Of a DNA stretch of 64,000 nt, positions 5,140 to 59,397 are shown piece after piece; positions within the stretch are counted from its first letter, which is position 1, and every line of letters begins with the position of its first letter. This DNA comes from an uncultured Gammaproteobacteria bacterium (GTDB lineage: Bacteria; Patescibacteriota; Patescibacteriia; UBA1558; GWA2-36-10). Below the pieces are notes generated by a model, which saw only the letters and a program-made list of their open reading frames with translations, was not told the DNA's origin and made no database searches. The DNA lies in assembly GCA_964633905.1 (NCBI GenBank), contig CAZWIT010000001.1, positions 65,535 through 129,534 of the forward strand, read 5' to 3'. Both the position numbers and the translations under genes were made by a program.

Positions 5140-5295
5140 ATAAAAAAAACAGCTCAGCTTTTCCTTAAAAACTGGGCTTTTTTGTGTACAATTTTTATAT
5201 TGACAAAAATTATAGGAGTGCTAGCATATAGGCTTATCTAGCATAAAGGATGCTAAGTTCTTCGGAAGTAGTATCAAGGGGGTATAGGCAATTTG

Positions 5296-5370
5296 CCGCG
5301 CGTAGCTCAGCTGGACAGAGCACTCTCATTACGAAGAGAGAGGTCGGAGGTTCAAGTCCTTCCGCGTGCC
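5296..5370 (+). tRNA. tRNA, probably Val (anticodon TAC)
   Basis: Cloverleaf: D-arm GCTCAGCTGGACAGAGC, T-arm GGAGGTTCAAGTCCTTC, anticodon region CTCTC-ATTACGA(A)-GAGAG resembling E. coli tRNA-Val(UAC). The anticodon loop appears to be 8 nt and the acceptor stem has a mismatch, so it needs a tRNAscan check. It overlaps a spurious ORF 5250..5876. Confidence 0.6.
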
Positions 5371-5372
5371 CC

Positions 5373-5420
5373 CGGGCTCGCTGGCGTAAAAAAACGTCAG
5401 CGAGCCCTTTATTTTTGACA
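5373..5420 (+). terminator. Rho-independent terminator after the tRNA
   Basis: GGGCTCGCTGGCG-taaaaaaa-CGTCAGCGAGCCC stem followed by TTTATTTTT. Confidence 0.7.
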
Positions 5421-6006: not shown

Positions 6007-7050
6007 ATGTCAAAACAAGAAAATTCAGCAAAAAAGGAGCGTATTTTAACTGGCATGCGACCAACTGGCAGTCTGCACCTGGGACATTATGTTGGCGCTT
6101 TAGAAAATTGGATTAAATTGCAGAATGAGTATGACTGTCATTTTTTGATTGCTGATTATCAAGCCTTTGGTGATTATGCGGATAATATTTCTAAAATCAG
6201 AGATTCGGTTATCCAAGTAACAATAGATTGGTTGTCAGTTGGTTTGGATCCAAATAAAAATACTTTTGTTATTCAAAGCTATGTGCCAGAACACGCAGAG
6301 CTAGCCATGCTTTTGAGTATGATTACTCCTAGGGTATTAATTGATCGTAATCCAACTTTAAAAGACGAATCAGCTTTACAAAAAGATATTTCTTTAGGTT
6401 TTTATAATTATCCGGCTAGCCAAGCGGCTGATATACTTTTACCAAAAGCAAATTTAGTGCCAGTAGGCGAGGATCAGTTGCCTCACATTGAGCTTACTCG
6501 GGAAATTGCTAGAAGATTTAATCGTATGTACGGCGAAATTTTTCCTTTGCCCAAAGCTTTAGTAGGTAGGGTGCCGCGTTTAATAGGGATTGATGGTAAG
6601 GCTAAGATGAGTAAGAGTTTGGGTAATTGTATTTATTTGTCAGATAGTGCTGATTTGGTCGAGAAAAAAGTCAAAAAAATGTACACTGATCCAACTAGAC
6701 TTAAAGCCACTGATCCAGGTCATATTGAGGGTAATGTAGTTTTTACTTATTTAGACGCTTTTTATCATGACAAAACAGAGCTTGATAATTTAAAGAAAGA
6801 ATATCGGGCTGGTAAGCTAGGCGATGCTCAAGTAAAGAGTCTTTTGACAGGAATATTAAATAATTTTTTGGAGCCAATTAGAGAAAAAAGAGCTTTTTAT
6901 CAAGCTCATCCAGAAATGATTAAAGATGCCTTAATTGAAGGTACGCAAAAAAATAAAAAATTAGCAGCAACTACCATGGCCGAAGTTAAAGAAGCTATGA
7001 AAATAACAGCTTACGAAGACATTAAAAATATTAAAAAAATAATTTTATAA
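6007..7050 (+). CDS. trpS: Tryptophanyl-tRNA synthetase (housekeeping copy)
   Basis: TGSLHLGHYVGAL (HIGH-like) and KMSKSLGN motifs. AT-rich native codon usage. No SD. Confidence 0.95.
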   Translation: MSKQENSAKKERILTGMRPTGSLHLGHYVGALENWIKLQNEYDCHFLIADYQAFGDYADNISKIRDSVIQVTIDWLSVGLDPNKNTFVIQSYVPEHAELAMLLSMITPRVLIDRNPTLKDESALQKDISLGFYNYPASQAADILLPKANLVPVGEDQLPHIELTREIARRFNRMYGEIFPLPKALVGRVPRLIGIDGKAKMSKSLGNCIYLSDSADLVEKKVKKMYTDPTRLKATDPGHIEGNVVFTYLDAFYHDKTELDNLKKEYRAGKLGDAQVKSLLTGILNNFLEPIREKRAFYQAHPEMIKDALIEGTQKNKKLAATTMAEVKEAMKITAYEDIKNIKKIIL

Positions 7051-9323: not shown

Positions 9324-10487
9324 TTAATTTGGTAACATCTTAGCTACCAATCTCATCGTTTCAAGGGCTTGGCCACTTTTGAGAGCAGCTTCAGCCATTT
9401 TGAAACCTTCGGCAAAAGATTTGCAATAACCAGCTAGGTAGTAGAGCAAGGAAGCGTTCGCATAGACAGTGCTCATGCGTTCGCCGTTAATTTCTCCAGA
9501 CAGGAGCTGGAGCGAATATTCGCCTTTATTGCCAATCGGGCGCACAGCTTCCAGTGGGATAGGGTGAATACCAAAATTTTCGGCACTAAGCTCGTATTCC
9601 AAAATTTCTTCATTACGCAATTCAGCAACTTGAGTACCACCATGGCACACAGAAGCTTCGTCCATACCAAAGATTCTTGATTCATCAGCAAAACCACGAA
9701 TAAATAGGCCGTGCTTGAGATGTGTTAAGCCTTTCTGATTAAGAATCAAATAAACTTCAGCTACGACGCGAGGCGGGATCAGTTGATTCACGCCCAGAAC
9801 ACGCCTGGTCATGAGTTTAGTGGATATAGGATTAGTGATGGGTCCGATGATGTCATTCATATGGGGTAGTTTAGCAAAGCTATGGGTTTGCAAATGAATC
9901 TTTTTGTAGCGAGTATCAAGTGCTTCCGTATACCCAAAATTATATTTTCTCAATGCTTCCATTACTTTGTCTTTGTCGGCAAAAGTATTAATGCGACAAA
10001 TTTTAGAAACAAAATCAGAACTACCATAAAGACCTTTATCAGCATTGGCAGGGGAACCGTGTTTGCACATCGGTATGCCATCAGAGGCAGCAATAAATGC
10101 TGACACCGTGCTAATATTAGCGGTAACGATCAGATCGCCACCCATGCCGCAATTATCCATTGCAAATTCCATTTCCGGGTTCAAGAATCCAAATTCGGAT
10201 TTAGCAATATCATGTTCAAAAATAGCAGCACAGATACCAGCAATTTGTTCAGCTGGACTCTTGGGCAGTGGATGACCGTGATGTTCTTCAAGACGCTTGT
10301 TCCATTGCCAGTTATAGGTAGCTTGGCTGTGCAGAGCGCAAAGGACAGCCACGCTTTGTATCTGCGCAAGGGCATTACCAGCGCATCCATCTAGCGTGTA
10401 GACACCCAAGGCGTAAGCTTCGTCATATGTCAAAGGAATATTCTGATAAGCATGATCTTTGAGTAGGTGCTTGACATCGATGGGCAT
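9324..10487 (-). CDS. Glycosyltransferase family 3 protein, anthranilate phosphoribosyltransferase (TrpD)-like paralog
   Basis: GMGGDL (the TrpD GTGGD PRPP motif) and CKHGSPANADKG (TrpD KHGNR region). SD AAGGAG 8 nt before ATG (MPIDVKHLL…). Elevated GC (~48%). The track ORF 9324..10532 includes a 5' extension. Confidence 0.7.
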   Translation of the reverse strand: MPIDVKHLLKDHAYQNIPLTYDEAYALGVYTLDGCAGNALAQIQSVAVLCALHSQATYNWQWNKRLEEHHGHPLPKSPAEQIAGICAAIFEHDIAKSEFGFLNPEMEFAMDNCGMGGDLIVTANISTVSAFIAASDGIPMCKHGSPANADKGLYGSSDFVSKICRINTFADKDKVMEALRKYNFGYTEALDTRYKKIHLQTHSFAKLPHMNDIIGPITNPISTKLMTRRVLGVNQLIPPRVVAEVYLILNQKGLTHLKHGLFIRGFADESRIFGMDEASVCHGGTQVAELRNEEILEYELSAENFGIHPIPLEAVRPIGNKGEYSLQLLSGEINGERMSTVYANASLLYYLAGYCKSFAEGFKMAEAALKSGQALETMRLVAKMLPN

Positions 10488-10519
10488 TGTTGGTGCTCCT
10501 TCTTTTAGGCTAGTTGCCT

Positions 10520-11023
10520 TTATCCCAACCACTCTATTAGCTTGTCCATTCCTAGTCTCACGGTATTGTGAATAGATATTATAACCATTTGATGAGATTC
10601 GGAATCTTTATTTCCATTAGGGTCTATTATGTCACTAACATCAGTGGATAATTCCCCGAATAATCTTATTTTATAAAAATATTGGGGGAATTGTTCTTTA
10701 AGTTTAGTCAGTATGTAAGAATCCATGGCCAATATTTGTTCAGCCTGGTGAATTATGTCGTTATCTATCGGAGTAGATTTTTTATCAATAGGTATTTCTA
10801 TACCTATATTATCCAGGTATGGTTTAGCCAAATTATATTCTTCTGAGTAATCACGAAGATTAAGATGTTTTGGTAAGGGTAGACCCATTGTGCCTTGTAA
10901 GCTTCTAGAAACTACACTTATAGTATCTTCTTTGCCTATTTTTTTTATTTCTTTTTGCATACATAATTCAGCAATCACTGAGCGATATATATTGCCTTTG
11001 CAGACTATTAAAATGGTTTTCAT
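10520..11023 (-). CDS. Low-molecular-weight protein tyrosine phosphatase / ArsC-like (CX5R P-loop)
   Basis: VCKGNIYRS P-loop near the N-terminus and a C-terminal DP motif. SD AAGGAGG 8 nt upstream. First gene of a minus-strand operon with the TrpD-like gene. Confidence 0.7.
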   Translation of the reverse strand: MKTILIVCKGNIYRSVIAELCMQKEIKKIGKEDTISVVSRSLQGTMGLPLPKHLNLRDYSEEYNLAKPYLDNIGIEIPIDKKSTPIDNDIIHQAEQILAMDSYILTKLKEQFPQYFYKIRLFGELSTDVSDIIDPNGNKDSESHQMVIISIHNTVRLGMDKLIEWLG

Positions 11024-11149
11024 TTCTTTAGCCTCCTTGTTTTGCGGGAAATTTGTAATATCGTTTTACAACCTAAGCTATAATGTTAAAGAGCAAGTCG
11101 ATAAATTAAACATAAATGTACGAAAAAGTCAATAAAAAAACTTCTTATC

Positions 11150-11425
11150 CTCTTGTTACAAATATAATATTTGTACTAAAAGGACGAGAAGCTTCCCGTG
11201 GTACCACCTTTATTATTTTGATTGTTATGACAAATTAAAAAATCTGTCAGTAAAACAGATCAAAATCACTTTTACCGACTCAAGCCCCATTAGCTTATGC
11301 TTATGGCGACATCAGTTAGCCCATGATTACGGAGGCTGCCGAGTTATCACTAACGCAATAACCATCTCTGCGTGCCCAACCCCGCAATTTGCGGGACACG
11401 CTTCATAGATTTTGTAATTTTCAAA
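11150..11425 (-). ncRNA. Candidate T-box riboswitch leader (minus strand) upstream of the phosphatase/TrpD-like operon
   Basis: The minus-strand RNA contains AAUAAAGGUGGUACCACGGG. This matches the T-box antiterminator consensus AAUUAGGGUGGUACCGCGG at 18/20 positions. It lies in a GC-richer, hairpin-dense ~270-nt leader between a candidate minus-strand promoter (TTGACA at plus 11460-11465 as complement) and the ATG at 11023. A terminator helix could not be folded convincingly by eye. Confidence 0.4.
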
Positions 11426-11480
11426 GTATTAATATTATCTTATATTTTATTATTATTTTTGTCAAGCTTGTTATTAATGC

Positions 11481-11515
11481 CTTGACATAAGCCTTTTTTT
11501 ATGTATAATACCATT
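11481..11515 (+). promoter_or_regulatory. Consensus sigma70 promoter for tRNA-Trp (TTGACA-16-TATAAT)
   Basis: cTTGACAtaagcctttttttatgTATAATacc, ~20 nt upstream of the tRNA 5' end. The minus-strand -35 TTGACA (complement of plus 11460-11465) lies just upstream, ~16 nt away (back-to-back, not overlapping). Confidence 0.6.
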
Positions 11516-11537
11516 ATATTTAGTTCATGTCATTGGT

Positions 11538-11612
11538 GGGCGCGTCGGTTAATTGGTAAACCACTGGTCTCCAAAACCAGGACTGGGGGTTCGAGTCCCT
11601 CCGCGCCTGCCA
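11538..11612 (+). tRNA. tRNA-Trp (anticodon CCA), CCA encoded
   Basis: Acceptor GGGCGCG/CGCGCCU, D-arm GGTTAATTGGTAAAACC, anticodon stem-loop CTGGT-CTCCAAA-ACCAG, T-loop TTCGAGT, discriminator G, 3' CCA. Confidence 0.85.
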
Positions 11613-11634
11613 CCCTAAAATATGGCTCAGATCT

Positions 11635-11660
11635 AGCTCAGATTTGAGCTTTTTATTTTT
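11635..11660 (+). terminator. Intrinsic terminator after tRNA-Trp
   Basis: AGCTCA-GATT-TGAGCT followed by TTTTATTTTT. Confidence 0.6.
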
Positions 11661-11827
11661 GACAATTATTTAGAATTATGGTAATTTCATAGGCAATTTA
11701 AGGTACATTGATAATATAAAGAAAGTACCATTTTCTATACAAAAACTGATATTTTTAGCGATTTTGGAAATATAGTTTTTACTTGTTAACTTCACCACAA
11801 CTAACACAGGAAAACGGAGGTGATGAC

Positions 11828-12862
11828 ATGCAAAATAAGCGTATCCTGACAGGTATGCGTACGACCGGCAGATTGCACCTTGGTCATTTTGTTGGCGCGT
11901 TGCATAGTTGGCTGGAATTGGAAAGAGAATATGAATGTTATTTTTTGTTAGCTGATGTTCAAGCTCTTACTACTCATTTTGATCGCGTGGCTGAGATTGA
12001 GGAATCAGTACGACAAGTGGTCATTGACTGGTTGTCGGTTGGCCTTGATCCCAAGCATTCTGCTTTTGTACTGCAATCAGCAGTGCGGGAATATCCGGAA
12101 CTTACTACCTATTTAGCCTTGCTAACCAGCATGGCTGAGCTAGAGAGAAATCCTACGCTAAAGGACGAGATCAAGCAACACGGCATGTCTTCAGTGAATT
12201 TGGGATTTATGATGTATCCTGTTTCACAGGCAGCTGATATTTTGCTATTCACTCCTGATCCCAGTGATCCGGAAGCTGAACTGCTAGTGCCAGTTGGCGA
12301 AGATCAGGTGCCTCATATTGAAATGAGTCGCGATTTGGCGCGGGCTTTTAATCGCCAATATGGCGATACTTTTGTTTTGCCTAAAGCTAAGGTTGGTTTT
12401 ATTCCGCGTTTGGGTGATTTGAGCGGTGGTCAGAAGAAGATGGGTAAAAGCTATGGTAATGCTATCTACCTATCTGATAATAGTAGCGATGTTTCAGAAA
12501 AAGTTCGTCTGGGTACCACTGATCCTAATAAGGCTAGAAAAAATGATCCGGGTAATCCTGACATTTGTCCAGTTTTTTCTTATCAGCAAATCTTTAATGA
12601 ATCAGAAGAGTTTCAGATTCGTAAGGATTGTATAGCTGGTAGTTTGGGTTGTGTTGATTGTAAGGCCCGCTTGGCTCAATCAATCAACACTTTTCTAGAG
12701 CCAATGCGTGATCGTAGATCAGATGTTGAACAAAAACCCGATATTGTTGCTGAAGCTGTTTGGTCCGGCACCAACCGTGCTTGTGAAATTGGTCAGAGGA
12801 CCATGGAGGAAGTGCGGCGGGTAATGCACCTGGACTACCCAAGTCTTCCCAAGCCGTCCTAA
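11828..12862 (+). CDS. Second tryptophanyl-tRNA synthetase paralog (TrpRS-II), higher GC, KMGKS variant
   Basis: TGRLHLGHFVGAL and KMGKSYGN (KMSKS→KMGKS). ~60% identity to the copy at 6007. RBS GGAGGTGA 5 nt before ATG 11828; the track ORF 11783 is a 5' extension. GC ~45% against ~35% background. Confidence 0.9.
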   Translation: MQNKRILTGMRTTGRLHLGHFVGALHSWLELEREYECYFLLADVQALTTHFDRVAEIEESVRQVVIDWLSVGLDPKHSAFVLQSAVREYPELTTYLALLTSMAELERNPTLKDEIKQHGMSSVNLGFMMYPVSQAADILLFTPDPSDPEAELLVPVGEDQVPHIEMSRDLARAFNRQYGDTFVLPKAKVGFIPRLGDLSGGQKKMGKSYGNAIYLSDNSSDVSEKVRLGTTDPNKARKNDPGNPDICPVFSYQQIFNESEEFQIRKDCIAGSLGCVDCKARLAQSINTFLEPMRDRRSDVEQKPDIVAEAVWSGTNRACEIGQRTMEEVRRVMHLDYPSLPKPS

Positions 12863-12877
12863 GGGAGGTTAGTGGTC

Positions 12878-14281
12878 ATGGAAGAAACCAAAATGTTTTC
12901 CGGTCGATGGCCCCTGGTGGGGGCCAAAGACGACACGATCCGAGCTTTCTTGGATCAGCAGTTTAAGGAAACTATTCGTTGGGGTGAAAGCGAAGTCCTG
13001 GGTTTTCCCAGTATGTCGCCACACCCTTTGGGTTTGGATATTTTGCAACAGGGTTTTCTGTTGCACGCTAACAATATTATGACCCTGACTCGTAGTAGGG
13101 GAGAAAAAGGTTTTGCTGGTTTTCAAAATATCGAGCGTGATTTGATTAATATGGTTGGCAACCTGTTGGGTGCCAAGCAAGTTGACGGCTACGTTACTTC
13201 TGGTGGAACTGAAGCTAATATGATGGGTTTGTGGGTTGGTCGTGAGAAGCTACGGCACACTGTTGTTGATCCGAGTGATAATCGGGTAGCGGTGTTAGCT
13301 TCGTCAGCTTCCCATTATAGTCTGCGTAAGGCTTGTAATCTTTTGGATTTGGGCGAGGGTATTTGGACTCCTTGTGCCAAGCCTTGCTTGGATCCTATTG
13401 GTAATAAGCCGATTAAGCATGTTTTTCATCCGTCAAACAATGGCGGTGGCCTGCATTTCATCAAGTGCGATGAAAGTGGTCGTATCGATGTTGTTGAATT
13501 GGAACGACGCATTTGTCATTTGCGTGAGCATTACGGCATTCGTCGTTTCCTGATTTTTTTGAATGAAGGTACGACTTTGACTGGCGCTATGGACAATGTC
13601 CAAAGCGTCGGCTCTCTAGTTTCTTGTTTGCGTAATGAAGTTTCGCAGCAGTGGGATTTTTATATTCATGTTGACGCTGCTTATGGTGGCTTTGTTTACC
13701 CCTTCTTGCGTGAAACGCAAGACATGAATTGGGGTTTTCGAGTGCCTCAAGTTGATTCTATGACAGTTGATCCGTATAAGATGGGGCAGTGCCCCTTGGC
13801 TGAAGGGATTTTCTTGTGTCGGCGTTCCGAACAAGGTGATGGTCCGCAATGCTATATCGAGCGTTCGGCTCATTATGTTGATGGTGCTCAAGATGATACT
13901 TTGATTGGTTCGCGTGCCGGCGCTTTTGCCGCAGCTTGCTGGGCTGTTTTCCAGCGAGAGGGTTCGAGCGGCTTTGCCGGTATGCATTCCGCATCTTTGC
14001 TGCAACGTGACTATTTGGCTGATCGTTTGGCCAAGTTGTCTTTGCAACCTCAGTGTCATTTGAATATGGTATCTTTCTATTTTCCTCAAGATCTGAATAG
14101 TGCTGTTTGGCGTCGGATGGCTGATTTGGTTACCGACTATCGTTTGATGTGGGATTGGTTTAGCCGTGATCCTGAGGATCCGGAAGATCATCCCCGCAAG
14201 ATCGTCAAGTTTAATATTACTCGTGACGTAAAAAGCGAGTGGATTGATAACTTCATTTCCGATTTGGAGAAGATTTTTTGA
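12878..14281 (+). CDS. PLP-dependent group II amino-acid decarboxylase (aromatic/tyrosine-decarboxylase-like)
   Basis: SGGTEANMMGL (S-G-G-T-E-[AS]-N signature) and TVDPYKMG (PLP-lysine region of MfnA/SPL-like decarboxylases). SD AGGGAGG 9 nt before ATG. GC ~52%. Translationally coupled to the upstream trpS paralog (16 nt gap). Confidence 0.8.
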   Translation: MEETKMFSGRWPLVGAKDDTIRAFLDQQFKETIRWGESEVLGFPSMSPHPLGLDILQQGFLLHANNIMTLTRSRGEKGFAGFQNIERDLINMVGNLLGAKQVDGYVTSGGTEANMMGLWVGREKLRHTVVDPSDNRVAVLASSASHYSLRKACNLLDLGEGIWTPCAKPCLDPIGNKPIKHVFHPSNNGGGLHFIKCDESGRIDVVELERRICHLREHYGIRRFLIFLNEGTTLTGAMDNVQSVGSLVSCLRNEVSQQWDFYIHVDAAYGGFVYPFLRETQDMNWGFRVPQVDSMTVDPYKMGQCPLAEGIFLCRRSEQGDGPQCYIERSAHYVDGAQDDTLIGSRAGAFAAACWAVFQREGSSGFAGMHSASLLQRDYLADRLAKLSLQPQCHLNMVSFYFPQDLNSAVWRRMADLVTDYRLMWDWFSRDPEDPEDHPRKIVKFNITRDVKSEWIDNFISDLEKIF

Positions 14282-46167: not shown

Positions 46168-47169
46168 ATGAAGATTTTTAAGAAGATATTATCACTCATT
46201 TTTTTAGGAGTATTAGTTTTTGCGCTTTGGTTTGCTTATAATCTATTTTTCAATAATGCTTTAAGTAAAGATCAGAGTTTTAGTATTGAAACTGGTCAGG
46301 GCGTTAATCAAATAAGCGCCAATTTATTTGATCAAGGTATTATTAGAAATAAATTTGTTTTTGAAACTTGGCTATGGTTAAAAAGGGAAGAAAATAAAGT
46401 AGTGGCCGGAGTTTATGATCTGCCGAGGGGGATTAGTATTTATCGTTTAAGTAATACGATCACTAAATTACCAGCCAATAGTCAACGTTCAGTTTTGCTG
46501 CCCGAAGGTTTAGACCGTAGGAGTGTTGCTGAAATTTTAAAAAATAAAGGTTTTGATGCCGATAAATTTTTATTAATTAGTGGTGATAAAGGGGAGTGGC
46601 AGACAGAATTTACTTTTTTGCGGGATGCTCCACGCATTGCTAGCTTAGAAGGTTATATTTTTCCAGACACTTATTTTGTTGATAAATATACAACAGTTGA
46701 GGATTTTATTAAGAAGACTTTAGCTAATTTTGATCGGAAATTAAGTGATAAATTAAGAGCGGAAATTGTTACTCAAAATCAAACCATCTTTGAAGTAGTC
46801 ACTTTGGCTTCTATTATTGAGCGTGAAGTGCCTAATGACTCTGACAAAAAAATGATTGCTGATATTTTTTTAAAGCGCTTAAAGATTAATATGGCTTTGC
46901 AGTCGGATGCCACTGTTAATTTTGTGACTGGCAAGGGTTTAGCTCAGCCGACCTATGCAGATTTGGAAGTTGATTCACCTTATAATACTTATAAAAACCC
47001 AGGCTTGCCTCCGGGCCCTATTTCTAGTCCAGGTATTAGTAGCATTGAAGCTGTTTTATATCCAACTCCTAATGATTATTATTATTTCCTAACTGATAAA
47101 GAAGGTAAAGTTTATTACGCCAAAACTTATGACGAACATTTAGCTAATAAGGCAAAATATTTAGACTAG
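46168..47169 (+). CDS. mltG: Endolytic murein transglycosylase MltG/YceG-like
   Basis: N-terminal TM plus YceG-like domain (…VTLASIIEREV…). Confidence 0.75.
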   Translation: MKIFKKILSLIFLGVLVFALWFAYNLFFNNALSKDQSFSIETGQGVNQISANLFDQGIIRNKFVFETWLWLKREENKVVAGVYDLPRGISIYRLSNTITKLPANSQRSVLLPEGLDRRSVAEILKNKGFDADKFLLISGDKGEWQTEFTFLRDAPRIASLEGYIFPDTYFVDKYTTVEDFIKKTLANFDRKLSDKLRAEIVTQNQTIFEVVTLASIIEREVPNDSDKKMIADIFLKRLKINMALQSDATVNFVTGKGLAQPTYADLEVDSPYNTYKNPGLPPGPISSPGISSIEAVLYPTPNDYYYFLTDKEGKVYYAKTYDEHLANKAKYLD

Positions 47170-47192
47170 GTTTTATTTATAATCTAAAATTA

Positions 47193-47225
47193 AAAAAAGA
47201 AGCCCGTCGCGTGTGCAACGGGCAA
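47193..47225 (-). terminator. Intrinsic terminator for the GC-rich cassette gene (minus strand)
   Basis: Minus-strand GCCCGTTGCACACGCGACGGGC followed by TTCTTTTTTT. Confidence 0.65.
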
Positions 47226-47257
47226 TCATTGAGACTTGCTCGGGGCCAGAGACTCTC

Positions 47258-47491
47258 TTAGTACTCGTCATCGATAGGAGTCAATTTTCCTTCGATGTGG
47301 TGGAAGTCCCCCACGCCGAGGTATTTTGCATCGTCCCAGTTGCTGGAGGGGGTTGCTTGGCCTTCCTCCACGGTCTTAGCCTCGGTAATCTCGACCACTT
47401 TACCTTCGATCTGGTAGAAGACTTTGTGATCCTGGTACGTCGCTACGACCTCGGCCTGTTTGGCCGAATAGAAGAGGTGAGTTTTCTTCAC
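47258..47491 (-). CDS. Hypothetical 77-aa protein, GC-rich (~55%) foreign-looking cassette gene 'A'
   Basis: SD AGGAGG upstream of GTG 47491. Codon usage and GC are unlike the host. Own promoter and terminator. The plus-strand ORF 47213..47548 is its shadow. Confidence 0.55.
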   Translation of the reverse strand: MKKTHLFYSAKQAEVVATYQDHKVFYQIEGKVVEITEAKTVEEGQATPSSNWDDAKYLGVGDFHHIEGKLTPIDDEY

Positions 47492-47548
47492 GGCCTTAGC
47501 CTCCTAGTTGGGGAACAAACTAACTTGACCAGTTTAGTTTTAAACTAA

Positions 47549-47577
47549 ACTATATCATATTATATTTATTTTGTCAA
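47549..47577 (-). promoter_or_regulatory. Promoter P1 (minus strand): TTGACA-17-(TG)-TATAGT
   Basis: Minus-strand TTGACAaaataaatataatatgaTATAGT. Extended -10 TGaTATAGT. Confidence 0.6.
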
Positions 47578-47603
47578 TAGTATAGTTATTACAATAATTT
47601 TTC

Positions 47604-47632
47604 TTGACAAATATTATTTTTTGCCTTATAAT
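47604..47632 (+). promoter_or_regulatory. rplJ operon promoter (TTGACA-17-TATAAT)
   Basis: TTGACAaatattattttttgcctTATAAT, perfect consensus. Confidence 0.7.
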
Positions 47633-47730
47633 ATTGCTACAATTTAGTAAATAGCCGCAGATAGTGGGTTTTTAGCTAATATTAGCTAGATATAAATCCT
47701 GCCGAGGTAAAAATTTCTTAGTTTTTATTG

Positions 47731-47754
47731 TCTGCGCTATGACGCAGATTTTTT
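47731..47754 (+). promoter_or_regulatory. L10-leader-like attenuator hairpin immediately upstream of rplJ
   Basis: TCTGCG-CTATGA-CGCAGA + TTTTTT, ending 16 nt before the rplJ ATG inside a ~140-nt 5' UTR. Confidence 0.5.
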
Positions 47755-47769
47755 AATAACAACAATAAT

Positions 47770-48294
47770 ATGCCCCAGAATAAACAACAAAAAGGCGAGG
47801 TTTTACAAAAAATTCAGGAAAAGATTGCTAAAAGCAAAACTATTTTGTTTTCGGCTGATCAGGGTTTAAATGTAAAAACCGTTGAAGATTTACGTAAAGC
47901 TTTAAAAGCAGAAGGCGCTGAGTATTTGGTAGCTAAAAAAACTTTAATTAAAATGGCCACCAAAGAATTAATGCCTAACGAAGAGTTAGATAAAATTGAT
48001 GGTTCAGTTGGTATGACTTTGTCTTATGAAGATGAAGTTAGTGGTGCTAAAATTTTACACAAGTTTGCCAAAGCTAACGAAAAATTAAATATTAGCGGTG
48101 GTATTTTAGAAAACAAGTACATTGATACCAGTGTGGTTCAACGTTTAGCTAGCTTGCCTTCCAAGCATGAACTACTTGCTAAATTAGTTGGTACTATTCA
48201 AGCTCCAGTTTCAGGTTTGGTAAATGTCTTAAGTGGCAATTTACGTAACTTGGTAGGAGTTTTGGGAGCTATTAAAGATAAAAAAGCAAATTAA
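47770..48294 (+). CDS. rplJ: 50S ribosomal protein L10
   Basis: MPQNKQQKGEVLQKIQEKIAKSKTILFSADQGLNVKTVEDLRKAL…. Confidence 0.9.
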   Translation: MPQNKQQKGEVLQKIQEKIAKSKTILFSADQGLNVKTVEDLRKALKAEGAEYLVAKKTLIKMATKELMPNEELDKIDGSVGMTLSYEDEVSGAKILHKFAKANEKLNISGGILENKYIDTSVVQRLASLPSKHELLAKLVGTIQAPVSGLVNVLSGNLRNLVGVLGAIKDKKAN

Positions 48295-57700: not shown

Positions 57701-58525
57701 CTAGCCGCGCCGCGCCTTGGCAGCCGCGAGCAGCTGGTTGGCGATGACACGGGCCTCGCCGTTCACGGGCTTCAGCGGCTCGTGATCCAGCTTGGCAATG
57801 GCTTCATCCTGCACCGTGAGGTCACGGATGACCTCGTCGATGCTCTCGACGTCCGGGATCGCGATCGCGATCCCCATGCCGCCGTGGTCTCTCATGCAGA
57901 CCAGGCAGAGCCTCCAGACCTTGTCGCCGAGCGGAACCTGGGGCACGCCGTTCTTCCCGAACACGGGAATCCCGGCCTTGCCATCGATGCCGGTGCCCAG
58001 CTTGGTGACCATCTGCAGGGTGTCGGCCTCGTCTTCGCTGCGCTTCGTCTTCATCTGTGAGACGAACTCGCAGACACGGATGAAGACGCGGTCGGACGGG
58101 TAGTCCGGGTTGGTGGCGTAGAAGGCCAGCGCCGCGTTGATGTCCTTGGCGTACTGGTCGTTCTCCATCGCCATCGCCGACTTCTGCTGCTGCAGAGCCT
58201 CGATGCAATCGCGGACCCGGTCGTGGTCATGGTTCATCATGCCCACGGCCTCGTCCTGGTCGGGCCAGATCCGCATGACGAGCATGCGGTAGCCGTCGCC
58301 CGGAACCTGCAGGCCGCGCCGACGGTCGTCGATGACGACCGACAGGGGCTTGGCGGTGCCGATGCCGTGTTCGGCCGCGCCGTCTTGGACGTACACGACG
58401 CCGTAGGCGTTGCGGTACTCGCTGCGGGTGTTGCCGGTGGCGGTGGTCGGAGCGGTGGCGGTGGTCGGAGCGGTGGCGGCGGGAGCAGCGGCCTTGGGGG
58501 CCTTGGTGTTGGTCTTACGAGCCAT
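57701..58525 (-). CDS. Hypothetical 274-aa protein, ~65% GC foreign cassette gene 'B' (Ala/Pro/Thr-rich N-terminal tail)
   Basis: Coherent high-GC3 codon usage on the minus strand. SD AGGAGG 8 nt before ATG. Own consensus promoter P2 and downstream hairpins. The N-terminus MARKTNTKAPKAAAPAATAPTTATAPTTATG… is low-complexity. No motif recognised. Confidence 0.6.
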   Translation of the reverse strand: MARKTNTKAPKAAAPAATAPTTATAPTTATGNTRSEYRNAYGVVYVQDGAAEHGIGTAKPLSVVIDDRRRGLQVPGDGYRMLVMRIWPDQDEAVGMMNHDHDRVRDCIEALQQQKSAMAMENDQYAKDINAALAFYATNPDYPSDRVFIRVCEFVSQMKTKRSEDEADTLQMVTKLGTGIDGKAGIPVFGKNGVPQVPLGDKVWRLCLVCMRDHGGMGIAIAIPDVESIDEVIRDLTVQDEAIAKLDHEPLKPVNGEARVIANQLLAAAKARRG

Positions 58526-58623
58526 CTTGCTTACCTCCTGAAAATTAGAATGTGCACATCCCCTAAAGTGACAACAGTACCAACAGTCAGTACGTTTATT
58601 AGGGGATTTTTCATTATATCATA

Positions 58624-58652
58624 TATACAAATATTTGTCAAGGGTATTGAAA
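58624..58652 (-). promoter_or_regulatory. Promoter P2 (minus): TTGACA-17-TG-n-TATAAT
   Basis: Minus strand TTGACAaatatttgtatatatgaTATAAT. Confidence 0.65.
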
Positions 58653-58713
58653 AGCCCCGGCACTAGGTGCGTCGGGGCTTGGGGCGAAGTGGTACAACAC
58701 AGTCGGCTTGCTA

Positions 58714-59091
58714 CTAGATGTAGCAATTGATCTTGACCCTGGAAATGACTTCTCCAGAGACGCGATCACGAAGTAGTACTTCGTAATTGCCCACCACCAA
58801 GGTGGCTTTGGGATCGTTCATGACTTTAGCCAACAAGCGGCCATTCTTATAGATTTCCATGTAGGCCAGCTTCCTGGCCTGGTTGGATACCATGCAGATG
58901 GGCTTTTCATCAGCCAAGCGGAGGCGGATCGAATCGCCATCGACACAGACGTAGCTAGTATCGATATAGCGCGGGTTGGGCCGAACCAGGATGGTCGCTT
59001 CCCCAGGCTTGGTGATCGGCTGCGAATTGCAGGCGGCAAGCAGAGTCAGCGAAAGAAACAGCAGGCTGGCGATCAGGAAGAACTTACGCAT
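58714..59091 (-). CDS. Putative lipoprotein, GC ~55%, foreign cassette gene 'C'
   Basis: Signal peptide plus lipobox LLAAC. SD AAGGAGG 6 nt before ATG. Own promoter P3. Confidence 0.55.
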   Translation of the reverse strand: MRKFFLIASLLFLSLTLLAACNSQPITKPGEATILVRPNPRYIDTSYVCVDGDSIRLRLADEKPICMVSNQARKLAYMEIYKNGRLLAKVMNDPKATLVVGNYEVLLRDRVSGEVISRVKINCYI

Positions 59092-59143
59092 CTTAACCCT
59101 CCTTGGTTTTTTGCCACTTCAATTGTCCTTAAAGAGCTTATAT

Positions 59144-59172
59144 ATTATATCATATATATTGATTATTGTCAA
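59144..59172 (-). promoter_or_regulatory. Promoter P3 (minus): TTGACA-17-TG-n-TATAAT
   Basis: Minus strand TTGACAataatcaatatatatgaTATAAT. Shares the 14-mer ATATATGATATAAT with P2. Confidence 0.65.
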
Positions 59173-59303
59173 ATATAATATATTAATCTTTTATAGCATT
59201 GACCCGCCTATGCTAAAGCTTCGGCGGGCGAGATGTGGTTTTTAAGAATAAATAGAAGTAGAGATGAGGTGTATTTTCTTATTAATGATTAGTTCTATTA
59301 ACC

Positions 59304-59397
59304 TTGACAATTAGCTTATTTTTTGTTAACATTTACCCCGTTAAATGCCGCGTGCGGCAATCGCGTTAAACGCGATTATTTAACGGGGTGAACCCCG
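59304..59397 (+). promoter_or_regulatory. rplU promoter + L21-leader-like structured 5' UTR
   Basis: TTGACA(59304)-17-TAACAT. Then CCCCGTTAAAT[GCCGCGTGCGGC][AATCGCGTTAAACGCGATT]ATTTAACGGGG. The GGGG can alternatively pair with the downstream CCCC (GGGG-TGAA-CCCC), giving mutually exclusive structures. Confidence 0.5.

Follow-up and report, generated by a model that had tools for sequence, protein, structure and literature searches.

Why does a 77-codon gene rich in guanine and cytosine (GC), with expression signals of its own, stand between mltG and the ribosomal-protein gene rplJ in an AT-rich bacterial genome, and what does its resemblance to other genes nearby mean? The gene, here called gene A, lies on the minus strand of a 64,000-nt stretch of contig CAZWIT010000001.1, which is the window of this study. 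An initial annotation had described it as one of three unlinked, moron-like cassettes (A, B and C) with a single promoter design. In our assessment gene A is probably a self-contained single-gene transcription unit inserted in a variable spot between mltG and rplJ, that is, a moron-like accessory gene of phage-related ancestry which moves or is exchanged whole.

The window has an overall GC content of 34.1% and encodes tsf, gap, cysS, trpS, uppP, mltG, rplJ-rplL, mraZ-rsmH-ftsL-PBP-murF, rplU and recR, which is the gene set of a genome-reduced bacterium. Its nearest species representatives are Candidatus Nomurabacteria and other metagenome-assembled genomes (MAGs) of Patescibacteria, with RsmH identities of just 61-63%. 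Synteny was compared with loci from five relatives (L007-L011), whose proteins are ~60% identical to those of the window, and the gene order is common to the window and all five over ~20 kb.

The gene A unit and its insertion site

The genes mltG and rplJ are directly adjacent in three of the relatives (L007, L008 and L010), where the -35 box of the rplJ promoter comes 0-10 nt after the mltG stop codon and the gap measures 158-185 nt, against 600 nt in the window. The rplJ promoter and ribosomal protein L10 leader of these three genomes align base for base with the window, and the ~425 extra bases of the window sit exactly at the junction. Because the site is empty in these relatives, the gene A unit is taken as an insertion in a variable spot, and the description of gene A as wedged between mltG and the rplJ leader stands. 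The gap is filled differently in the other two relatives: in L009 (3703-4920) by a 405-aa (amino acid) protein whose N-terminus resembles that of type IV pilins, and in L011 (3086-4454) by hypothetical open reading frames (ORFs) of 55 aa and 346 aa. In the window the gene A promoter, P1, and the rplJ promoter stand back to back with 26 bp between their -35 boxes. A transposon or miniature inverted-repeat transposable element was ruled out, as the search for direct and inverted repeats at the insert ends gave just weak AT-rich matches.

The boundaries of the insert also bear on whether the unit is the remnant of a decayed prophage, and hence a moron in the strict sense. The occurrence of the family in phage genomes and the moron architecture would suit such an origin. 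However, the insert is only ~425 nt long and is set precisely between the end of mltG and the rplJ promoter, its housekeeping flanks are syntenic over ~20 kb, and scans of A, B and C against the PHROGs phage families returned no significant match. We give this origin almost no weight.

All features first ascribed to the cassette, i.e., the GTG start, the AGGAGG Shine-Dalgarno (SD) sequence, promoter P1 and the GC-rich terminator, were found in place on the minus strand (Table 1); P1, the start site, the leader hairpin and the terminator are predictions from sequence. The GC content, first given as ~55%, is 51.7% for the ORF and reaches 55.5% in the peak 200-nt window. GC at third codon positions (GC3) is 0.68 in gene A, compared with a median of 0.25 in the 59 ORFs of the window, which served as baseline.

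A housekeeping sigma factor would start transcription at ~47542, as judged from the -10 box, with initiation in such promoters expected ~7 nt downstream of it, using the near-consensus TRTGn '-16' promoter. The ~50-nt leader, with a 5'-proximal hairpin that is possibly stabilising, and the AGGAGG-N8-GTG arrangement would then allow efficient translation of the 77-residue protein, and the GC-rich hairpin with its U-tract would end the transcript at ~47195, before it could run antisense into mltG. The expected outcome would be strong, sigma-A-dependent and monocistronic expression between these two positions. The terminator hairpin region folds with -23.7 kcal/mol (z = -2.6). Taken as a whole, the leader has no more stable a fold than shuffled sequences (z = -0.2 to -0.3), and for this reason no riboswitch-like element is claimed for it; an E-value scan with Rfam of both loci (gene A and B/C) found the L10 leader as the sole match. 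We further found a perfect 10+1+10 DNA palindrome, AGTTTAGTTT-T-AAACTAAACT, at 47531-47551. It overlaps both the -10 box of gene A and its predicted start site, occurs only once in the window, and its distal arm pairs with 47515-47524 in the predicted 5' hairpin of the RNA.

A 111-aa antisense ORF (47213-47548, plus strand) was rejected as a GC-rich shadow of gene A, since sequence conservation and the expression signals (SD, promoter and terminator) all agree with the minus strand. Within gene A we noticed two short direct repeats at the DNA level (47282-47306/47396-47420 and 47363-47383/47483-47503), with a spacing of 114-120 nt and 84-86% identity. One of them gives the untranslated SD/start region a likeness to codons 37-43, and the other mirrors a peptide repeat, FYQIEGKV/FHHIEGKL. 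Note also that the L10 leader scores just below the Rfam gathering score of 44 yet is almost invariant in four Patescibacteria genomes; the model RF00557 may under-detect this lineage.

Table 1. Features of the gene A unit, its flanks and the promoters of genes B and C (window coordinates)
Feature	Position	Strand	Description
Inserted unit	47173..47596	-	~425 nt; missing at the orthologous mltG/rplJ junction of L007, L008, L010
Promoter P1	47577..47549	-	TTGACAAAATAAATATAATATGATATAGT; near-consensus, 11/12, sigma-70-type with TG at -15/-14
Parts of P1			-35 TTGACA 47577-47572; 17-nt spacer; TRTGn = TATGA 47559-47555; -10 TATAGT 47554-47549
Predicted 5' leader	47492..47542	-	~50 nt; 9-bp stem-loop near 5' end (transcript nt 3-26)
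SD AGGAGG	47505..47500	-	8 nt ahead of GTG start
Gene A	47258..47491	-	77 aa, GTG start, TAA stop
Conserved block in 3' untranslated region (3'UTR), CCCGAGCAAGTCT	47232..47244	-	common to A-family cassettes L087, L101/L102
Intrinsic terminator	47223..47192	-	GCCCGTTGCACACGCGACGGGC then TTCTTTTTTT; 9-bp stem (7 GC), 4-nt loop, U-tract
mltG	46168..47169	+	left flank, convergent with gene A; 56-62% identical to syntenic mltG of L007-L011
rplJ promoter	47604..47632	+	TTGACAAATATTATTTTTTGCCTTATAAT; orthologously kept in L007, L008, L010
Ribosomal protein L10 leader	47637..47763	+	full-length Rfam RF00557 match, 40 bits, E = 6e-5; precedes rplJ
rplJ	47770-48294	+	behind L10 leader
Promoter P2	58641..58613	-	with a long leader, drives C (58525-57701; 274 aa, GC3 0.90); 11.1 kb from P1
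Promoter P3	59172..59144	-	drives B (59091-58714; 125 aa, lipoprotein-like, GC3 0.70); 11.6 kb from P1

A protein family of phages and Patescibacteria

A word-index search of 5.8 billion proteins found no match to the gene A protein, and its exact sequence is absent from the record. An exhaustive HMMER (phmmer) search of 1.8 billion representative proteins returned 20 matches (best E = 1e-16, 67% identity), one of which, a PKD-repeat protein, is spurious, and a profile search brought together 35 proteins, all of them unnamed. Family members range from 60 to 140 aa and share the motifs HLFYSxKQ, G.IVEhTE and WDDAxYLGxGxFHH. All three are present in gene A, following the patterns [HF]-h-[FW]-[YF]-S-x-[KR]-Q, G-x-h-V-E-h-T-E and W-D-D-A-x-Y-L-G-x-G-x-[FY]-H-H. 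D54, L58 and G59 do not vary among the 45 members, and conservation of S9, E37 and Y57 is at least 90%. Between gene A and its closest homologue the proportion of differing sites is 0.28 at non-synonymous positions (pN) and 0.87, i.e., saturated, at synonymous positions (pS), and therefore gene A is considered a real protein under purifying selection.

The AlphaFold (AF2) model of gene A is compact and confident (pLDDT 90.8, pTM 0.75) and consists, in order, of a strand, a short helix, three strands, a long loop and a long strand. It matches no solved structure in the PDB, and its weak structural matches are uncharacterised viral proteins only (BFVD, E = 0.004-0.1, TM 0.45-0.61). The protein is acidic, of alpha+beta type, has neither signal peptide nor membrane segment, and is predicted to be cytoplasmic; two of its homologues are fusions with a pilin-type or transmembrane segment at the N-terminus. 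No significant match to gene A was found in Pfam, NCBIfam, PADLOC or PHROGs, and library scans of all 45 family members gave just three PHROGs without an assigned function and, in a single fusion protein, a pilin N-methyl motif. The family is rare and unnamed, lacks a Pfam entry and a PDB fold match, and is common to phages and bacteria of the Candidate Phyla Radiation.

These results also concern the proposal, made at first annotation, that the small protein could be a regulator, toxin or antitoxin. Its small size and its own, predicted strong promoter are in keeping with such a function, and the palindrome over the promoter could mean autoregulation. However, the gene stands alone in all chromosomal contexts, and no partner gene is conserved beside it. 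The four libraries give no match, and the confident model, made of one short helix and five strands, corresponds to no solved fold; neither family nor fold points to a DNA-binding domain. We regard the proposal as very improbable. A part in phage-host conflict, e.g., exclusion or interference, rather than in regulation or in a toxin-antitoxin system, is our low-confidence guess.

The family has members in phages. One adjoins a portal gene (L091; portal E = 9.5e-116) and another lies near a DUF4055 portal and a Mu-F head protein (L098). In L090 (3599-6145), L091 (1635-4303) and L098 (3871-6293), the A-family gene has a DegT-type aminotransferase on one side and an NAD-dependent sugar epimerase on the other, and this arrangement near the portal hints at a link of that subfamily to a sugar-modification module. 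Members in L099 and L100 are found within arrays of small, one-directional ORFs of phage type. The cellular members come from Parcubacteria (L001-L004), a Patescibacteria contig (L005) and a Melioribacteraceae MAG (L006), and the four closest homologues of gene A are on the short contigs L087, L101/L102, L103 and L104.

One solitary copy each was found in L087, L101/L102, L103, L104, L001 and L005, in neighborhoods that are different or only partly shared: compared with mltG/rplJ in the window, a cyclophilin terminator and/or typA adjoin the copies of L103, L104 and L101, and a membrane protein lies upstream in L087. A promoter of the TTGACA(A)AAAT type precedes five of the six copies, the box of L103 being degraded to TTGATA, and the -10 box of L001 is weaker (TAAAAT-like) and without the TG extension. 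A terminator hairpin follows each of the six. Folding predicts a stem-loop near the 5' end for four of five cassette leaders, and one of its base pairs is compensatory between L101 and L103. Just past the stop codon, the window, L087 (830-842), L101 (822-834) and L102 share a 13-nt block in the 3'UTR, CCYGAGCAWGTCT. This block has been kept in three A-family cassettes despite saturated synonymous sites, and it occurs neither elsewhere in the window nor in the other fetched loci. The shared promoter class, 5' hairpin, GC-rich ORF and, in part, 3'UTR block suggest that the unit travels or persists whole, from promoter to terminator. Its label as moron-like is apt as far as the own promoter and terminator, the deviating composition and the phage members of the family are concerned, but the unit is not located in a phage or prophage.

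Several observations weigh against an inserted, moron-like gene of phage-related ancestry. The phage members of the family are distant (30-40% identity), and a tblastn search with gene A against 50,697 deposited phage genomes gave no match. That the unit was inserted here, rather than lost elsewhere, is suggested by parsimony over relatives which are only ~60% identical in protein. The insert ends showed neither a recombinase nor repeats or a target duplication, the repeat search having yielded weak AT-rich matches only. The palindrome over the -10 box and start site could be an operator, in which case expression of gene A would be regulated, not constitutive. Lastly, the role in phage-host conflict is a guess.

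Promoter design and GC-rich reading frames

The initial annotation had noted that P1 shares a TTGACA box, 17-nt spacing and an extended -10 element with P2 and P3, and this was confirmed. P1 reads TTGACA-N12-TATG-A-TATAGT, which places it among TRTGn extended -10 promoters, and the string first written as 'ATGATATA(A/G)T' is explained by the TRTG -16 element together with the -10 box. The simpler pattern TTGACA-N17-TATART occurs six times in the window, compared with 0.03 expected. The full pattern, TTGACA-N12-TRTGn-TATART, occurs three times in the 64 kb, with zero expected, and only before the GC3-outlier ORFs A, B and C; the pattern is therefore not due to chance. The ribosomal-protein promoters of the window do not have the TG extension.

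Do the three genes then owe their promoters to a mobile module, or to a donor or integration mechanism that they had in common, as had been suggested? The exclusive presence of the full design before A, B and C, their joint standing as GC3 outliers, and the identity of P2 and P3 at 24 of 29 positions are the points in favor. As background, we compared 446 between-genome pairs of TTGACA-17-TGnTAnnnT promoters from low-GC loci of other genomes, which gave a mean of 17.9 identities per 29 positions and 75th, 90th and 99th percentiles of 19, 21 and 24. P2-P3 thus reaches the 99th percentile of the class, whereas P1-P2 (19/29) and P1-P3 (20/29) lie in the bulk of the distribution. The best match of P1 is found in another genome (L007, 20208, minus strand; 26/29), where it drives an unrelated GC-rich secreted protein, divergent from rplU. 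When P1, P2 and P3 were aligned with their flanks, no homology was detected beyond the 29-nt promoters themselves. In L007, L008, L009 and L010, promoters divergent from rplU occupy the position of P3. The class consensus is TTGACAAAAT...(A/T)TRTG(A/C)TATAAT, and the design TTGACAAAAT...TRTGnTATAAT is found at orthologous positions in relatives only ~60% identical in protein. The likeness of P1 to the promoters of B and C is thus best read as the lineage's standard strong-promoter consensus, not as a sign of common origin.

Genes B and C exist as described, but they adjoin each other (57701-59172, minus strand), and the three cassettes occupy two loci, including that of gene A, not three. For B, L009 and L010 each have a syntenic homologue between the tRNA genes and rplU, with 34% identity over 95 aa in the former and 27% in the latter, and C is homologous to a syntenic GC-rich 225-aa ORF of L009 (22% over 200 aa, pairwise E = 1e-7). 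The closer strain L088 has the same order of B tail, terminator, P2, leader, C, terminator and tRNA. Only two relatives of C, both close, were found among 5.8 billion proteins, and neither B nor C has a significant match in Pfam, PHROGs, NCBIfam or PADLOC. Given their syntenic homologues in L009, L010 and L088, B and C count as resident rather than recently inserted genes. No homologue of A was found near any homologue of B or C, nor the converse, in the fetched loci and flanks that these co-occurrence checks covered. The idea of a shared module is largely refuted for P1 already, and for the three genes together it appears highly improbable.

The rplU promoter stands back to back with a TRTG-type promoter in five genomes (window 59144-59332; L007 20208/20256; L008 20803/20850; L009 16228/16248; L010 16483/16503), the latter driving a small fast-evolving gene. 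The genes behind these promoters are often GC-rich and secreted or lipoprotein-like, and P1/rplJ is a pair of the same kind.

A comparison of window 57701-59172 with L088 (1-1390) reveals an uneven divergence. Identity is 89-93% in the non-coding parts, which comprise the terminator of B, P2, and the 87-nt leader and double terminator of C. In C, 34% of synonymous and 15% of non-synonymous sites differ, and 48% of the synonymous sites differ in the B tail. The reading frames of B and C therefore outpace their own expression signals.

The composition of gene A invites another explanation, i.e., that it was recently imported from a GC-richer donor, either a host bacterium or its phage, so that the GC content is a transient scar and the AT-rich promoter was captured or evolved later. 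This would fit the GC3 of 0.68 against 0.25, the bias towards codons ending in C (NNC:NNT of 19:5) where native highly expressed genes prefer those ending in T, the presence of a family member in a contig of 55% GC (L093), and the empty mltG/rplJ site in relatives. Other observations count against it. The four closest homologues all lie in AT-rich flanks of Patescibacteria type, three of them with a TTGACAAAAT-type promoter and L103 with TTGATA, and three of the four are equally GC-rich (GC3 0.62-0.71) although synonymous sites are saturated between all of them (pS 0.66-0.92). Pairwise comparison of the A-subfamily ORFs in the window, L087, L101 and L104 gives amino acid identities of 0.42-0.57 and pS of 0.50-0.87 at GC3 of 0.62-0.71, in flanks of 0.34-0.45 GC. 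In the syntenic pair L101 and L104, the cassette ORFs (amino acid identity 0.53, pS 0.50) hold GC3 of 0.70 and 0.71 beside a typA neighbor of GC3 0.33 (identity 0.63) with saturated pS (0.83). Moreover, no GC-rich donor lineage was found among the 1.8 billion representative proteins. We consider a recent import of this kind unlikely, and the GC-richness of the A-subfamily ORFs looks maintained rather than a scar of transfer.

Codon usage gives a further indication. The NNC:NNT ratios are 19:5, 23:15 and 64:7 in A, B and C, as opposed to 9:32, 5:25 and 12:65 in the native highly expressed genes rplJ, rplU and tsf, and translational selection of the host is therefore not the cause of the GC-richness. 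Similarly GC-rich ORFs were found behind the same promoter class in L007, L009, L010 and L049. A search of the literature on GC-rich Patescibacteria genes turned up no account of this pattern. Speculatively, and with considerable doubt, we propose that Patescibacteria may keep 'expression slots': conserved AT-rich frames of promoter, leader and terminator, often back to back with ribosomal-protein promoters, that would hold fast-evolving lineage-specific ORFs with actively maintained GC-rich codons. A, B, C and the ORFs in L007, L009, L010, L049, L087, L101 and L104 might then follow one unrecognised rule of genome organisation instead of being unrelated imports. GC3 values of 0.62-0.90 despite saturated synonymous sites, and the 89-93% conservation of the non-coding flanks of C at a pS of 0.34, fit such slots. 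The GC-richness could be due to GC-biased gene conversion in the course of frequent cassette exchange via the conserved flanks, or to selection on the mRNA.

Two other peculiarities of the window were recorded. An island at 9324-14281 has moderately raised GC (GC3 0.37-0.43) and a TG-extended promoter at 11659. It holds a second tryptophanyl-tRNA synthetase (11783-12862; native copy 6007-7050), a 469-aa ORF (12872-14281) and a 402-aa ORF (9324-10532, minus strand), the latter two of which we take, judging by their sequences, to be PLP-decarboxylase-like (pyridoxal phosphate) and anthranilate-phosphoribosyltransferase-like, respectively. A tRNA-like gene at 5295-5373 (plus strand) has an irregular anticodon loop; ARAGORN assigns it the anticodon 'tacg' without an amino acid, and it matches the Rfam tRNA model with 42 bits.

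Significance and comparison with known systems

What makes the locus interesting is chiefly its new protein family, together with GC-rich ORFs that recur within native AT-rich expression signals and appear to be maintained. Gene A defines a family of small, confidently folding proteins without Pfam entry or PDB fold match. The promoters document a grammar, TTGACAAAAT...TRTGnTATAAT, for strongly signalled accessory genes in a lineage without mapped promoters. A compositional puzzle is posed by GC-rich frames stably set in AT-rich native expression signals beside ribosomal-protein promoters. If biased gene conversion or cassette exchange were at work, the puzzle would show how genome-reduced symbionts keep a small and fast-changing accessory repertoire.

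The promoter class has a known counterpart. TRTG is given as the -16 consensus of Gram-positive sigma-A promoters in PMC6570832, citing Voskuil & Chambliss 2002. P1 agrees with such promoters in its consensus -35 TTGACA, its 17-bp spacer (17 +/- 1 bp in the class) and its TATG at -17 to -14, one base ahead of a consensus-like -10 box. It differs in that the P1 class, whose activity is predicted, belongs to Patescibacteria and has an A-rich extension after the -35 box (TTGACAAAAT), and in that the full form is confined, within the window, to three accessory genes.

As for the unit as a whole, a type II toxin-antitoxin module consists of two adjacent, co-transcribed small genes, whereas gene A is monocistronic and its homologues are solitary in all chromosomal loci. 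Integron gene cassettes are small single-gene units in variable arrays or hot spots; they often encode ORFans, normally lack a promoter and end in attC. Gene A resembles them as a small single gene at a variable hot spot. Unlike them, it brings its own promoter and terminator, and the repeat search of the insert ends found no attC-like repeat at the unit, the terminator being the sole downstream inverted repeat.

A likeness is also seen to the hot-spot 'islets' of accessory genes in conserved intergenic sites of bacterial core genomes, as the mltG/rplJ gap is empty or holds gene A, a pilin-like gene or other ORFs across five related genomes. The gap differs from these islets in being unusually small and in abutting the upstream side of a ribosomal-protein promoter, and in that a second variable locus (B/C) is likewise paired with the rplU promoter. 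The gene A unit is a fairly ordinary accessory-gene insertion with one unexplained trait, its persistently GC-rich reading frame.

Phage morons are independent transcription units that horizontal transfer has carried from one phage genome to another (PMC3594210, 'The moron comes of age'). Like them, the gene A unit is a single gene with its own, here predicted, promoter and terminator, lies between genes that are adjacent in related genomes (empty in L007, L008 and L010), differs in composition from its flanks (GC 52% vs 34%; GC3 0.68 vs 0.25), and belongs to a family that also occurs in phages. Unlike them, it is located in a cellular chromosome, where the flanks uppP-mltG and rplJ-rplL are syntenic with five relatives. 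Copies related to gene A appear to be long-term residents of Patescibacteria, and their deviating composition seems to be maintained. Morons proper are expressed from a repressed prophage, to the benefit of the host. As the unit works like a phage moron but outside a phage or prophage, we file it as a chromosomal variant of the moron.

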